From the NCBI GenBank assembly GCA_031425655.1, contig JANPJS010000217.1, positions 1-24,007 on the forward strand: DNA of 24,007 nucleotides, in the 5' to 3' direction. Position numbers: made by a program. Within the stretch, counting starts at the first letter, position 1. Each line of letters opens with the position of its first letter. The DNA comes from Abditibacteriaceae bacterium. Its GTDB lineage: Bacteria; Armatimonadota; Abditibacteriia; Abditibacteriales; Abditibacteriaceae. Positions 1 through 3,000 of this stretch are shown piece after piece.

Positions 1-3000
1 CTGCTGGTGAGTGAACCGATCGCCGCCGATCCGAAGAAGGCGGAGCTCAAGCGGTCCTTGGATGCCGCGGTCCGTATTCTGGTGGCCGCGGGATATACGA
101 TCAAACGGATCCCGATGCATGCGCCTTTCGCCGCAGACGACGCCGACAAGCGTATTTGGCGGACCTACGCCAACAGCGTCTTCGTTCGTGGGCCGGCGGG
201 CGATTTTGTCCTCGTGCCGACCTACACCTCGGATAAGAGTCCGAAGGCCGCTCAAGACATCGAAGCTGAAGCACTCAAGACTTATGCCGACGTGTTCAAG
301 GCGAAGTATCCGACCTCGAAGATCATCAAGATCCCCTCGATGATGATCATCGAGGATGGTGGGGCCGTGCACTGTTCGACGATGCCTGTGTCGGCGGAAT
401 GAGCGGAAGCGCTCGTCTCGAGGAACGACGGCTCAACTACGCAGGCGCTTCACGGCTTCGTTGACGGCGGTTCCGCCCACCACAGCACCGCTCGCCTTGA
501 GGTGCTTCATCGCTACACCCGTGGCTGCACCTTCACTTCCTGCGGCCTTGATCGCGTCCGCGACCGGCGCCAACGCTTTGACGATGTCATCGGCGCTGAG
601 CTGCTTCGGTAGCAACGTCTCGAGCACACGATTTTCTTCTTCGAGCTTCTCGCGCATCTCGGCACGGTCCTGCACGACCGCCAACGTTTCGGTGTTGGAT
701 TTGATCAACTTGCGGATGATCTTCTGTGCGGCTTCGTCATCCACGGTGGCGCCGCGATTTTCGGCGGCTTGAATTTCTCCGAGGGCGACGCGGAGCACGT
801 CGCGTTCGATGACGCGGCCGCCTTTCATCGCTTCGATGACCCGTTTTTTGATGTCTTCCGCCAGCATGATGTTCGGAGACCCTACCACTCGGTGGGCTTA
901 TAATCCTTGTAAAAAAGCCCGAATGCGTGCTCGCCGGTCGAAAGCCCGTCGAAGATCGGCGCGACGATGCGGGCCGCGCCGTCGACGATGTCCAGCGGGG
1001 GCGAGAAGCCTTGCTCCTCGACCTTACGCGCCGCGATGACGGCCGGATCTTCGTCGGTCACCCAGCCGGTGTCGACGCTGTTCATGTGGATTCCGTCCTT
1101 CGCGTATTCACTCGCCGAGGTTCGGGTCATCATGTTGAGCGCGGCCTTGGCCATGTTGGTGTGTGGATGTTTGTCGGTCTTGAAGCGCCGGTAAAATTGG
1201 CCTTCCATCGCCGAGACGTTGACGATAAAGCGGCGCGGATGCGGCGAACGCAGCAAAAGCGGCTTCAATTTCGCGTTGAGCACGAAGGGCGCGACGGCAT
1301 TGACCAGATGCACTTCGAGCATTTCAAGTGTTGAGATTTCATGCAGGCGCCGCCTCCACGAATGATGCGGACGGGCATCGAACTGCTGGCCGTCGGCGTC
1401 CAACTGCCCGTGTGGAAAGTGTGCTTGCAACGCGGCTTCGCCGGGATAAAGCGGATGCCGCTCCAAAAGCGCCGCGCGGTTGGGCGACGCACCATTTGCA
1501 ATGAGCATTTGCGCGCCGTCGGGCAGTGCGAGGGCGTTTTCGGCATCAAGCAAATGCTGATAAAACGCCAACGGGCGCTTGACGGTTTGTGCGGCGTTGT
1601 GAATCACGATGTCGAGATGCGGCTGCGTTTCGAGCAAATGCGCGGCAAACGCTTCGACGGAAGACAAATCGCGTAAATCGAGGCCGAAAATCTGCAAACG
1701 GTCGCGCCACGCTGCAAAGTCGGTTTCCGCGCCAAAACGTCGCGCCGCATCGCGCGCAAAGCGCGTGGTGAGCAACACGCTTGCACCATCGCGCAGCAAG
1801 CGCAACGCGACTTCATAACCGATTTTGATGCGCCCGCCGGTGAGAAGCGCCGTTCGCCCACGCAAATCGGCGCGTTGCGTGCGCTTTTGCCAGTTAAACG
1901 TCGCGCAATCGGGACACAATTGATGATAAAACCAGTGCAGTTCGGCATAAGGCTGCTTGCAGACGTAGCACAACGCGGCGCGACTTAGCGAACGCTGTGA
2001 GTCGGCGAGAGCGGCGCTCTGCGGCGCAGCGGGAAGCGTGAGCGCAGAGCGCGAAGTTTCTGCGCGTTCACGCTGTTGTTGCACCAAAAGCGTCGTCGCA
2101 CGCAGGTCGCGGTCGAAGGCGGCGCGCGTTTCACGGGCGGTGCGGCGCTGACCTTTTTTGCCTTGCGTGTGGATTTTGGCGACCAAAGCCTTCATCCTCT
2201 CATCGTCGTTGATGACGGACGGGTCTTCCGAAATTTGCTGCAACACGCGCAGGCAAACCTCGCGCTCGTGCGGTGAAATTTCCATAAAAACGGCGGAAGC
2301 GGACGGGACTCGAACCCGCATTTTCCACATCTGGAGTGTGGTGTTCTTCCCTTGAACTACCGCTTCCAAAATCGGAGGAAGCCGGGAGGAGTTGAACCTC
2401 CACACCTCCTGAATGCAATTCAGGCGCTCTTCCCTTTGAGCTTACGGCTTCCAGAAAAGGTGAAAATGGGCGGGACTTGAACCCGCATTACTCGCGCGAA
2501 GTTCCAGGTCAAGCCGGGCCGAGCGTGCTTCCCTTGCACCACCATTTCCCTATCGCGCCGCAGGGAACCGGAAGGAATCGAACCTTCACCTCGCCGAGTT
2601 GCAGTCGGCTGCTCTTCCCTTGAGCTACAGTTCCCATAGAGGCACTCCTTTCAAATATGGCGCGCCAAAACTCCAACGTCAACACAAGAACGCTTCAGTT
2701 TCCGGCGTTGCTGGCGTTGTAAAATAAAAGACTGCCCCGCTTATGAACGACTTCGCCCTGCCATCTTCGGAAAATGCGCCGCTGATTCGCTGGTTTTGGC
2801 GCGCCGATGCCGACGCGCAAGGCATTTGGCGCGAGATGGATACGCTGCGAAAAAGCGGCTATGGCGGCCTGATTTTATGGCCGGACGGCGCGCAAGTCGG
2901 CTATTTGGGCGCCGAATGGATGCAAAAGGCGCGCTGGACGGCAGAAGCGTGCGCCGAACTTGATTTATCGCTGTGGCTAACCGACGATTGGACGCAGCCA

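Follow-up and report, generated by a model that had tools for sequence, protein, structure and literature searches.

The window analysed here is the stretch 1-24,007 (24,007 nucleotides) of contig JANPJS010000217.1 from an Abditibacteriaceae bacterium (Armatimonadota; GCA_031425655.1), to which coordinates refer unless another contig is named. Between positions 2292 and 2635 on its reverse strand, four tandem tRNA-shaped genes lie directly 5' of the gene for a Zn-ribbon SDR protein (Table 1). The preliminary description had reported four such 8/5 genes with an AAnGGAA D-loop and without a CCA end, the last one 7 nt before the ATG (2285), and both ARAGORN and folding bear this out: drawn as well as folded, all four combine an acceptor stem of 8 bp with a T stem of 5 bp and carry the D-loop AA(A)GGGAA. 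In the ARAGORN structures, the D stem has a length of 4 bp, and all variable loops but that of the 91-nt variant are short. The sequence following the eighth acceptor pair is GCC, UCC, ACC or UGC, CCA is encoded in none of the four, and the spacers within the array measure 6-12 nt. Upstream of the array, the promoter-like hexamer pair occurs once, compared to 0.1 expected sites in shuffles.

Table 1. Features of the array and its surroundings on contig JANPJS010000217.1.
Feature	Coordinates	Strand	Remarks
Sigma-70-like promoter hexamers (TTGACG-17-CATATT)	2654..2682	-	5' of the first tRNA-like; consensus match only
tRNA-like 1	2562..2635	-	Anticodon GCA; D-loop AAGGGAA; acceptor stem of 8 bp; U as discriminator, followed by GC
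tRNA-like 2	2459..2549	-	91-nt variant; 8-bp acceptor, D and T arms kept; tail ACC
tRNA-like 3	2374..2452	-	Anticodon UGC; 8-bp acceptor stem; lacks G3:U70; tail UCC
tRNA-like 4	2292..2367	-	Anticodon CCA; acceptor stem of 8 bp; GCC tail; 7 nt between its end and the start codon of the SDR
Authentic 5' part of the cassette SDR	1224..2285	-	Residues 1 to about 354; 76-80% identity to P0002
26-nt word (codons of VNVSAMEGQ)	1198..1223	-	Identical in contig C79; assembly cross-over site
3' end of a different, unlinked-subtype SDR gene	882..1197	-	Joined by the assembler; outside the cassette
YqeY-like gene (PF09424)	433..888	-	Goes with the foreign SDR 3' end

Three of the four tRNA-likes exceed the gathering score (29) of the Rfam tRNA model RF00005, with 63.4, 53.4 and 64.2 bits for tRNA-likes 1, 3 and 4, which score 73.9, 69.6 and 78 bits, respectively, with R1, our covariance model of the tRNA-like class. 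In tRNA-like 2, a long irregular hairpin replaces the anticodon and variable region (drawn by ARAGORN as an 8-nt loop CCGG plus a variable arm); it has no RF00005 match, and reaches 60.3 bits with R1 and 18.2 bits with the Rfam tRNA-Sec model (RF01852, gathering score 47). The anticodon stem-loop of tRNA-like 3 matches its counterpart in the ordinary tRNA-Ala(UGC) of this genome at 16 of 17 positions. Since ordinary genes for tRNA-Cys(GCA), tRNA-Ala(UGC) and tRNA-Trp(CCA) are found on other contigs of the same genome, the tRNA-likes are extra copies, as had been claimed; the genome's own tRNA-Sec sits on contig C40.

The SDR gene downstream of the array had been described as encoding a 467-aa protein. 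Its helical N-domain, zinc ribbon, SDR fold and Tyr-to-Thr replacement stand, whereas its length and C-terminus do not, as the contig is chimeric near 1198-1223: residues 1-356 belong to one SDR subtype and residues 365-467 to another. The foreign tail, i.e., the last 103 codons, encodes a sequence with 76-81% identity to P0063, P0083 and P0101 (74% to P0119), compared to 58-64% to the cassette subtype. In an independent assembly, a 13.5-kb contig covers the 5' part of the SDR gene without differences and joins the array and the N-terminal part of the SDR to contig C79, which holds the C-terminal part of the SDR and a gene for a leucine-rich-repeat (LRR) protein. The depth-13.7 contig departs below position 1197 and continues as C79 sequence, and positions 700-991 are represented on a depth-3.4 contig. 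Because the contig is a chimera, the SDR C-terminus as read and the YqeY-like gene lie outside the system. The latter had been a candidate tRNA-binding partner and was rejected, since its adjacency is an assembly artefact and no YqeY was found beside any other member of the SDR family in loci L001-L152. An array on contig C61, considered as the upstream part that the C79 copy lacks, was likewise rejected; its members reach 33-52 bits with R1 and lack the D-loop motif.

Comparison with relatives supports the view that the tRNA-likes form a distinct, conserved 8/5 RNA class tied to a subfamily of SDR proteins, rather than ordinary isoacceptors. The eighth (-1:73) acceptor pair is formed in 48 of 52 SDR-linked relatives (GC 38, AU 5, GU 5, unpaired 4) and in 72 of 94 further matches that were left out of the building of R1 (GC 52, CG 12, UA 5, AU 3). 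While ARAGORN draws eight acceptor pairs for 16 of the 63 other tRNAs of the genome as well, the maintenance of this pairing across relatives argues against a drawing artefact. Among the 52 relatives, the acceptor helix is 97.6% paired, both positions vary in 21 of 22 pairs, and none of 500 shuffles reached the observed covariation score; the same pattern is seen in the 94 matches not used for the model. With a 5-pair T stem (98.8% paired), the acceptor/T arm amounts to 13 bp, which departs from the canonical 7/5 arm with its unpaired position 73. Moreover, U8, G18-G19, the T-loop and G53:C61 are conserved in the class.

In all genomes and loci scanned, the class is located exclusively at SDR cassettes. 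Whole-genome scans with R1 covered our genome as well as complete or near-complete genomes. In our genome, matches of at least 60 bits comprise the four array genes and one ordinary tRNA-Trp at 61 bits. In five further genomes (G033, G084, G210, G072 and G401), every match of at least 63 bits lies upstream of the SDR gene (one in G084 by about 1.7 kb), and four genomes with only an unlinked SDR gave no match above 60 bits. The SDR itself is encoded in 55 of the 401 genomes of the Armatimonadota sample. Same-strand tRNA-likes lie upstream in 18 of 63 SDR loci, none is on the opposite strand, and the 45 tRNA-less loci gave no R1 match (E up to 0.01); these counts reproduce in substance the earlier finding that a minority of SDR homologues is tRNA-linked. 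Among 80 cross-phylum SDR loci, the class is present only in L039, L060 and L069. Three others (L016, L018 and L045) have one R1 match each at 32-42 bits, the ARAGORN calls at these matches being a tRNA-Gln, a tRNA-Pro on the opposite strand and, downstream of the gene, an odd tRNA. Arrays consist of one to seven copies and mostly end 7-90 nt ahead of the first gene, with extra copies located 1-2.7 kb upstream, beyond other ORFs, in L069, L112 and L140. The conserved class that had been proposed is thus recovered by the covariance model in front of the cassette, and its linkage crosses phyla.

A third partner, which the preliminary description had missed, is an RI-type LRR protein encoded just downstream of the SDR or fused with it; the notion of a dedicated tRNA-like set is partly supported, in that the class is distinct and tied to the SDR, but needs to be extended by this protein and corrected for the chimeric gene. 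In our genome, the LRR gene is located at C79 557-1717 and its product is 61% identical to the LRR protein of locus L083 (tblastn). All 10 downstream proteins scanned matched PF13516 (LRR_6) with 36-94 bits (cut-off 23.4), which identifies them as RI-type LRR proteins. The three-way linkage of tRNA-likes, SDR and LRR is seen in Armatimonadota, where an LRR gene follows the SDR gene in 17 loci, all of which have tRNA-likes, and in none of the tRNA-less loci. Of 401 sampled Cyanobacteria, four encode the LRR protein, all four together with the SDR and one to five tRNA-likes. Furthermore, in LRR-anchored metagenome loci, among which two pairs look like duplicates, the SDR gene lies directly upstream in 33 of the 47 loci with room upstream, and of the 30 complete SDR-LRR pairs, all but one have tRNA-likes in the 800 nt upstream (29 pairs), the exception having two downstream.

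The association also persists through rearrangement. LRR and SDR are fused in 26 of 72 longer LRR relatives, L206 and L222 retain the array in front of an LRR-SDR fusion with altered gene order, and in L207 both tRNA-like copies are found downstream of the LRR gene. Cassettes without an LRR are L112/G026, a genome that has none, and L039. The cassette is self-contained, with varying neighbouring genes. Linkage was found at least in Armatimonadota and Cyanobacteria, and source names suggest that the cassette also occurs in Chloroflexota, Deinococcota, Planctomycetota and Bacteroidota. The plasmids and phages searched gave no LRR match.

Since members of the LRR family are also fused to varied enzymes (aldo/keto reductases, a serine hydrolase, AlkB-like domains and one RluA-type pseudouridine synthase), a role of the LRR as a targeting module for enzymes, some of them RNA-acting, fits the data. 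An atlas look-up of the LRR protein returned generic RNI-like clusters, the automatic name of the first including an RNA 2'-O-methyltransferase substrate-binding domain. The corresponding PF08032 was found only in the Microcoleus copy (28.4 bits with the whole protein, E 0.018 with the N-terminal 130 aa alone), i.e., in one of 10 scanned N-terminal parts, and no claim is built on it. NCBIfam gave no match for the three LRR proteins scanned, and from the complex prediction for SDR and LRR (0.00 in two runs without controls) no verdict is drawn.

In the authentic part of the SDR, the N-domain is helical and includes a long basic helix; it is accompanied by a CxxC..CxxC zinc ribbon and by a Rossmann part (TGGRIKIG, TTRF, NAAQT). 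Membership of the protein in the SDR superfamily is supported by PF00106 and PF13561 (61 and 64 bits, cut-off about 27), yet it lacks both the catalytic Ser-Tyr-Lys/YxxxK and the TGxxxGxG of classical SDRs: TGGRIKIG has a lysine at the third glycine of TGxxxGxG and TNMAK replaces YxxxK, both being invariant (24 and 38 sequences). CxxC..CxxC and HPHTNMAK are invariant in the family as well, with Thr376 aligning with the Tyr of YxxxK, in agreement with the replacement (HPHTxxxK) noted before. Judging from the missing tyrosine and the lysine in place of the third glycine, the cassette SDR may not be a working oxidoreductase. Foldseek matched the full model to generic classical SDRs only (probability 1.0 to many, TM to targets 0.6-0.76), and for the N-domain model (pLDDT 88.5) it returned weak zinc-finger rows only, none of them at E up to 0.001. 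Likewise, the family-library search returned generic SDR models only, below cut-offs, the atlas look-up of the N-domain returned unnamed clusters, and none of the fold and sequence searches, which yielded generic classical SDRs or zinc fingers, gave a tRNA-related match. The wider SDR family spans at least 594 species genomes, including Xanthomonas and Stenotrophomonas. As most of these relatives lack tRNA-likes and LRR, the SDR fold does not need these RNAs. On a FastTree of 167 SDR rows, the LRR-linked label is clustered (5 changes, compared to 42 in shuffles); a single clade is not claimed, because the tree holds the chimeric own row and some long branches.

A literature search found no description of this RNA class or cassette. 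With respect to the RNA, bacterial tRNA-Sec comes close, as it also combines an 8-bp acceptor with a 5-bp T stem into a 13-bp arm followed by a single discriminator. According to PMC7609411, such an arm sets tRNA-Sec apart for its dedicated factors and reduces its binding to EF-Tu. However, the tRNA-likes differ by their short variable loop (variants excepted), 4-bp D stem and many anticodons, and they adjoin SDR and LRR genes, whereas tRNA-Sec is tied to the Sel machinery. Neither a long arm nor an extended D stem is seen, UCA occurs in 4 of 137 members, and the best score with the tRNA-Sec model remains far below its threshold. The allo-tRNAs and selC* tRNA-Cys of Mukai et al. (PMC5389517) were mined from genomes and have lengthened acceptor stems and diverse anticodons; the text accessible to us leaves a non-translational role open and contains no mention of a linked SDR or LRR. 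As described there, the acceptor/T arms of these tRNAs measure 12 bp (8/4 or 9/3) and their variable arms are long, in contrast to the 8/5 arms and short loops found here. A 12-bp arm with a shortened T stem, together with a long variable arm, is absent from our class.

With respect to gene arrangement, bacterial Y RNAs (YrlA) offer a parallel: one to several tRNA-mimicking noncoding RNAs are encoded, with patchy distribution, beside the gene for the solenoid protein Rsr/Ro60, which is thought to bind them. However, YrlA is a partial tRNA mimic bound by a TROVE/vWA protein, whereas full cloverleaves occur here together with LRR and SDR, and no TROVE domain was found among 20 neighbouring proteins scanned. 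A vWA protein near the cassettes was seen only in L060, where it belongs to an unrelated VIT/vWA gene. SDR5C1/MRPP2 of mitochondrial RNase P shares the Rossmann SDR fold and is an example of an SDR at work within a tRNA-binding complex. The cassette SDR differs from it and from classical SDRs by the Tyr-to-Thr replacement, the invariant HPH, the lysine in the Gly-rich loop and the added N-domain and zinc ribbon, and its partner is an LRR protein instead of a TRM10-type methyltransferase. For tRNA-ProX, the partner is reportedly an aminoacyl-tRNA synthetase, ProRSx, with an adjacent gene, and the function is mistranslation, whereas the cassette has no synthetase.

The occurrence of the trio of array, SDR and LRR in several phyla points to an undescribed RNA-protein system. 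The best explanation for the locus is that the contig carries the 5' two-thirds of a self-contained cassette, consisting of a predicted promoter, the array, the Zn-ribbon SDR and the RI-type LRR, and we assign a probability of roughly 60% to the tRNA-likes being private, non-translational partners of this SDR-LRR enzyme pair. Array and protein genes would be made as one precursor, from which tRNA-processing enzymes would excise L-shaped RNAs with a 13-bp acceptor/T arm, leaving an SDR-LRR message with a very short leader. The released RNAs would stay outside general translation and serve the two proteins as a private substrate, carrier or scaffold; by analogy with tRNA-Sec, the 13-bp arm may bar them from EF-Tu. 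The SDR, with its long basic helix and zinc ribbon, and the LRR horseshoe could jointly grip the conserved 'upper half' formed by acceptor, D and T elements, and the SDR might then use NADP(H) to act on the RNA itself or on a 3'-esterified group.

Several alternatives need to be weighed against these private partners. It is unlikely, though worth considering, that the cassette is an accessory conflict module of toxin-antitoxin-like or immune type, in which tRNA mimics curb a tRNA-directed activity of SDR and LRR or act as bait for the tRNA-targeting enzyme of an invader, the resulting damage being sensed via the LRR. LRRs are sensors in many immune proteins, the copy number ranges from 1 to 7, the anticodon stem-loops resemble those of real tRNAs on a common chassis, and the cassette is self-contained amid changing neighbours and patchily spread (4 of 401 cyanobacteria, 17 of about 63 Armatimonadota SDR loci). 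Type III toxin-antitoxin systems (ToxIN) are similarly built, with a tandem RNA array of variable copy number immediately 5' of a protein gene. However, the repeat units of ToxI are short and nearly identical, and the toxin that cuts them is an endoribonuclease, whereas the array consists of diverse full cloverleaves. In addition, two SDRs and three LRR proteins matched none of 5027 PADLOC models, no nuclease or other known toxin domain is present, the neighbours seen are not defence genes, and the cassette was not found on the plasmids and phages searched.

It appears quite unlikely that the tRNA-likes are real minor translational tRNAs with an extra acceptor pair, perhaps for regulated mistranslation or recoding, which are co-transcribed with two modifying or regulating proteins. 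Three of the four score 53-64 bits on the Rfam tRNA model and tertiary-pair positions are kept. Bacterial tRNA-Trp and tRNA-Cys have discriminators G and U, respectively, as do the Trp-like and Cys-like members of our array. U33 is retained in 43 of 52 relatives and the anticodon set is non-random, recurring in two independent sets; with real-looking stem-loops, decoding or mimicry would fit as well. Non-canonical tRNA families with a dedicated neighbour enzyme have a precedent in tRNA-ProX, an odd bacterial tRNA family (PMC10404621). Nevertheless, the fit to translation is poor, because the AlaRS determinant G3:U70 is missing at its canonical position from all 27 Ala-anticodon members, those with Ser(GCU) or Leu(CAA) anticodons are only 71-78 nt long and have a short variable loop instead of the long arm, the anticodon loop is not 7 nt long in 15 of 137 members (about 11%), C33 occurs in 8 of 52, and the 91-nt variant lacks a normal anticodon arm. 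Anticodons UCA, AUC, ACA and AGC also occur. Further counterevidence comes from the 13-bp arm, which lowers EF-Tu binding in tRNA-Sec (PMC7609411). Moreover, acceptor sequences are uniform across differing 'isoacceptors', the genome also has canonical genes for these anticodons, and the cassette encodes no extra synthetase or elongation factor.

Finally, a leader acting only in cis, in which RNase P and 3' processing are drawn in by the tRNA shapes so that the SDR-LRR message is trimmed, stabilised or timed, while the RNAs themselves have no role, is very unlikely: tRNA punctuation trims messages elsewhere, the tRNA-likes are always on the same strand and usually end shortly before the first gene, and our leader would measure about 9 nt after processing, without a Shine-Dalgarno sequence, but one hairpin or tRNA would do for this purpose, whereas arrays of up to seven are kept, the class-specific eighth pair, D-loop motif and tertiary positions are conserved across phyla, and copies are located downstream of the LRR gene in L207 and behind other ORFs in L069, L112 and L140.

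Within the preferred reading of private partners, a more specific and, in our estimate, improbable version is that the tRNA-likes are RNA carriers, whose 3'-esterified acyl group would be reductively off-loaded by the SDR, similar to glutamyl-tRNA reductase or the SDR-type release domains of non-ribosomal synthetases, with the LRR selecting carriers by their 13-bp arm. If so, LRR fusions with a serine hydrolase or aldo/keto reductase would represent hydrolytic and reductive release variants. A tRNA-decoy immune sensor would be an equally novel alternative to such carriers.

If the tRNA-likes are private partners of the SDR-LRR pair, they would constitute a new bacterial RNA class of class-I-shaped tRNAs with a tRNA-Sec-like 8/5 arm, and add a further case to the short list of tRNA roles outside translation. 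Automatic annotation will label them as ordinary tRNA-Trp, tRNA-Ala or tRNA-Cys and thereby inflate tRNA counts. As a natural tRNA chassis that may be kept from ordinary translation, they would also attract interest in genetic-code engineering. Furthermore, the cassette, spanning at least Armatimonadota and Cyanobacteria, would reveal a new use of the common SDR and LRR folds as dedicated partners of tRNA-like RNAs, and would provide the first functional handle on the orphan Zn-ribbon SDR family with HPHT.

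ARAGORN calls four tRNA-shaped genes in tandem on the same strand, as the preliminary description had proposed. In each of the drawings, the acceptor stem comprises 8 bp, the D stem 4 bp with an AA(A)GGGAA D-loop, and the T stem 5 bp with a normal T-loop. The 8-bp acceptor stem was likewise obtained for all 4 genes by free-energy folding, which gave complete cloverleafs with normal D and T arms for the UGC and GCA members and a minimum-energy fold other than a cloverleaf for the CCA member. The 91-nt member forms its D and T arms without an anticodon arm; its anticodon and variable regions fold into a single long irregular hairpin. 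Three of the 4 elements score 64.2, 63.4, and 53.4 bits with the Rfam tRNA model (gathering score 29), and the best score of the 91-nt element is 18.2 bits, obtained with the tRNA-Sec model and below that model's gathering score of 47. The tails 3' of the eighth acceptor pair read GCC, UCC, ACC, and UGC, with CCA encoded in none of them. A promoter-like TTGACG-17-CATATT element matching the consensus lies just 5' of the array, and 7 nt separate its final gene from the ATG at position 2285, a spacing that had been reported correctly; the product of this ORF, the zinc-ribbon short-chain dehydrogenase/reductase-fold protein (SDR), matches PF00106 and PF13561. Moreover, ordinary genes for tRNA-Trp(CCA), tRNA-Ala(UGC), and tRNA-Cys(GCA) are present on other contigs, in line with the earlier view that the array members are extra copies.

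tRNA-like genes of the array upstream of the SDR gene (window coordinates)
Feature	Position	Strand	Source
tRNA-like, CCA anticodon	2292-2367	(-)	ARAGORN
tRNA-like, UGC anticodon	2374-2452	(-)	ARAGORN
91-nt tRNA-like	2459-2549	(-)	ARAGORN
tRNA-like, GCA anticodon	2562-2635	(-)	ARAGORN

The SDR had been read as a single gene of 467 codons, and this part of the preliminary description had to be abandoned. Over residues 1-356, the window protein shows 76-80% identity to P0002, a homolog of the cassette subtype, whereas residues 365-467 are closer to the subtype from loci without tRNA-likes (74-81% identity) than to the cassette subtype (58-64%). A second SDR piece of the same genome (contig C79, 47-550), which is followed by a gene for a leucine-rich-repeat (LRR) protein at 557-1717, is reciprocal in that it shows 86% identity to P0002 past the same switch point. 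The switch falls inside a 26-nt word common to both contigs (window 1198-1223), and the window contig (at 1-1223) and C79 (at 1-233) look like reciprocal assembly chimeras of two paralogous or foreign SDR genes. For the window, the independent Logan contigs of sequencing run X1 settle that the join is an assembly chimera: a contig of 13,512 nt (depth 13.7) is identical to the window over 1198-2800, departs from it at 1164-1197, and then continues as the reverse complement of C79, and window 700-991 is found on a separate contig with a depth of 3.4. The LRR protein of this genome is recorded on a contig of 13,512 nt as well. From the subtype switch and the X1 contigs, it therefore follows that the true locus consists of the four tRNA-likes, the SDR gene, and the LRR gene, while YqeY and the last 103 SDR codons come from another, low-coverage source. 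Approximately the first 1.2 kb of the window, comprising a 131-aa ORF, YqeY, and the SDR 3' end, has an X1 depth of 3.4, compared to 13.7 elsewhere; within the loci compared, YqeY adjoins no other family member.

The gene after the SDR in tRNA-linked loci encodes a protein of approximately 380-426 aa with RI-type leucine-rich repeats, and PF13516 matches all 10 scanned LRR proteins (36-94 bits). By tblastn, the LRR gene was found in 17 of 143 SDR loci, all 17 of which carry tRNA-likes upstream, and in none of the tRNA-less loci among the 143. The family, with 983 relatives at E <= 1e-20, is specific and conserved, and is characterized in our alignment (A4) by an HCP..FPRGT..DGRLDLCKQ cap, WLKRNP, and a C-terminal IRSVYR; by source name, its members include Gloeothece (G. 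verrucosa), Leptolyngbya (sp. NIES-3755), Microcoleus, Kamptonema, Chamaesiphon, Herpetosiphon (sp.), Deinococcus (D. cellulosilyticus), Stieleria (S. varia), Pirellulaceae, Xanthocytophaga (X. agilis), and Armatimonas. Several members and top SDR matches lie on equally long contigs (e.g., 22559 for P0002 and P0122). The same alignment contains four (near-)invariant cysteines, C6 (HCP), C55 (DLCKQ), C64, and C112 (YLGCN), which might form a metal or redox site.

The linkage extends beyond the Armatimonadota. Only 4 of 401 sampled cyanobacterial genomes encode the LRR protein; in each of these, the SDR gene immediately precedes the LRR gene and is itself preceded by 1-5 tRNA-likes. Furthermore, a test in metagenomes was anchored on the LRR gene and covered the best 80 loci of 260 relatives. 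Among the 47 of these with at least 1700 nt upstream, the SDR directly precedes the LRR gene in 33, lies elsewhere in the locus in 2, and is absent in 12, which hold the most distant LRRs. Same-strand tRNA-likes occur within 800 nt upstream in 29 of the 30 SDR-LRR pairs whose SDR is complete and preceded by at least 150 nt (probable duplicates among the metagenome pairs being L191/L192 and L178/L179), and in the remaining pair, L207, two tRNA-likes lie just 3' of the LRR gene. In L206 and L222, the array is followed by a single ORF fusing the LRR and the zinc-ribbon SDR (896 and 903 aa), and such fusions, of which P0275 and P0283 are natural examples, account for 26 of 72 longer LRR relatives. 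There are exceptions: in L112, from a genome that is 98% complete and has no LRR homolog (G026), a SUKH/SMI1 protein (1014-1538(-)) takes the place of the LRR after the tRNA-likes and SDR, and in L039 (Parabeggiatoa), no LRR gene adjoins the SDR. In two Logan-derived proteins of 650 aa (P0191 and P0196), the SDR N-half ends with DGQQLDLR and passes directly into the LRR at FPRGT; lacking the SDR catalytic half, these proteins represent either a deletion derivative or an artifact. One genus of the phylum has additional ORFs of approximately 270-320 aa without a Pfam match and with 44-52% mutual identity, located upstream of the tRNA-like arrays or between them (L069 581-1528 and 1833-2798; L133 3468-4274). 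Loci L207, L190, and L206 have a DUF6745-like ORF of 523 aa close to the cassette.

A covariance model of the tRNA-likes (R1) scored the array genes of the genome at 78, 73.9, 69.6, and 60.3 bits and its ordinary tRNAs at 61 bits at best, the others at no more than 54. In 3 (near-)complete genomes of the phylum and 1 cyanobacterium, all matches of at least 63 bits lie upstream of the SDR, one of them approximately 1.7 kb upstream (G084); both array copies of a further genome, G402, score 62.5 and 57.8 bits. Four genomes with only an unlinked SDR gave nothing above 60 bits, and a linked genome run beside them gave three matches of 66-76 bits at the SDR gene. Among the SDR loci sampled from the phylum, R1 found no member in the 45 that lack tRNA-likes, and across 80 SDR loci from other phyla, the class is present in L039, L060, and L069 only, single matches of 32-42 bits in each of L016, L018, and L045 resembling ordinary or stray tRNA genes. 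These results address the concern that ARAGORN misses degenerate copies: R1 adds a few, but only inside loci already linked. In the genomes and loci covered, the tRNA-like class is confined to one genomic place, at the SDR cassette. The distance to the SDR start varies between two Microcoleus loci with 98% identical LRR proteins, from 409 nt (L060, 2593-3000) to 64 nt (L150).

The genome also holds seven or eight odd tRNA genes at a contig edge (C61 85-845(-), L145), three of which are 74-nt tRNA-Leu genes whose long variable arm is missing; R1 scores of 33-52 bits and the missing AAnGGAA loop rule them out as members of the SDR-linked class. The only tRNA-Leu(UAG) genes found by ARAGORN in this genome (C175 1885-1957 and C61 187-260) are class-I-shaped and 73-74 nt long, and the other Leu isoacceptors have one gene of 83-86 nt each, with CAA and UAA also having 74-nt copies on C61.

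The SDR family itself is large and well conserved, with 50-69% identity between phyla and relatives in at least 594 species genomes, among them Xanthomonas, Stenotrophomonas, Sorangium, and Nostoc. Its invariant motifs are CYxCK..H..Y..CPxC (the zinc ribbon), TGGRIKIG, TTRF, NAAQT, NVSAxEGQF, and HPHTNMAK. As described previously, the catalytic Tyr is replaced, the YxxxK Tyr aligning with Thr376, and its absence together with the altered Gly loop cautions against presuming ordinary SDR catalysis. An AlphaFold model (pLDDT 83.8) comprises a helical N-domain, two beta-hairpins, and a Rossmann SDR core; the N-part, modeled separately (pLDDT 88.5), contains a helix of approximately 54 residues with many Lys and Arg. 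Foldseek returned only generic classical SDRs for the full model and no significant match for the N-part.

The DGRLDLCK-capped LRR module is also fused to DUF924 and an FSH1 serine hydrolase (within P0255-P0308; L196 1826-5176 and L223 1637-5137), sometimes with an AlkB-like PF13532 domain or with PF11443, and some of these fusions are eukaryotic (rotifers and blastoclad fungi); no tRNA-likes were seen near L196 and L223. Five LRR relatives contain an aldo/keto reductase and one, from Parachlorella, an RluA-type pseudouridine synthase. These fusion partners suggest that enzymes, RNA-directed ones among them, are targeted through the LRR module. PADLOC holds no model for either protein, and NCBIfam has none for the LRR protein and only generic models, scoring below their cut-offs, for the SDR. 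That the cassette is a decoy or antitoxin-like conflict module we consider unlikely.

ARAGORN lengthens the acceptor stem wherever base -1 can pair with base 73, and since it draws 8 bp in 16 of 63 other tRNAs of the genome as well, a single such drawing proves nothing. We therefore counted pairs in an alignment of 52 tRNA-likes, all from SDR loci (A3). Here, the eighth pair is GC in 38, AU in 5, GU in 5, and unpaired in 4, the acceptor helix as a whole is 97.6% paired, and two-sided changes occur in 21 of 22 pairs, with a covariation score matched by none of 500 shuffles. A second set of 94 matches, kept out of R1 building, came from cyanobacterial and metagenome loci (40 of 83, namely those with matches after removal of four duplicates). 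Two of the 94, encoded on the opposite strand, are probably ordinary tRNAs; 72 of the 94 form the eighth pair (GC 52, CG 12, UA 5, AU 3). As U8, G18-G19, U54-U55-C56, A58, and G53:C61 are conserved, an L-shape is expected. In A3, 24 of 52 members have A as discriminator, tails read ACC in 8 and ACU in 6, and CCA is not encoded.

The anticodons of 137 tRNA-likes are nonrandom: Ala, Gly, Glu, Asp, Met, Cys, Ser(GCU), and Trp dominate, UCA occurs in 4, and those for Phe, Tyr, His, Asn, Lys, Gln, Ile, Thr, and Pro are absent. U33 is retained in 43 of 52, and the anticodon stem-loop of the Ala-like member in the window matches its counterpart in the real tRNA-Ala(UGC) at 16 of 17 positions, compared to about 10 of 17 and 12 of 17 (hand count) for the Trp- and Cys-like members and their counterparts. 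The anticodon loop differs from 7 nt in 15 of the 137, the variable loops of Ser- and Leu-type members are short, and none of the 27 Ala-types has G:U at the canonical 3:70 position, with 3 of the 27 having it at the third pair counted from the top. Acceptor sequences are similar regardless of the anticodon (GGAA, GGAG, GGGA, and others). What is conserved is thus a common "upper half" chassis, which carries tRNA-like, partly degenerate anticodon arms. We regard true minor tRNAs as improbable, and it is very improbable that the tRNA-likes are merely leader-processing elements.

Full-text literature searches, together with passages of the allo-tRNA paper (PMC5389517) and of a review of noncanonical tRNAs (PMC7609411), yielded no description of class-I-shaped 8/5 tRNAs or of a tRNA-SDR-LRR cassette. 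The exclusive, cross-phylum, and order-independent linkage, together with the fusions, shows that the tRNA-likes function jointly with the SDR and LRR proteins. With a probability of roughly 0.6, the tRNA-likes are private, nontranslational partners of the SDR-LRR pair.
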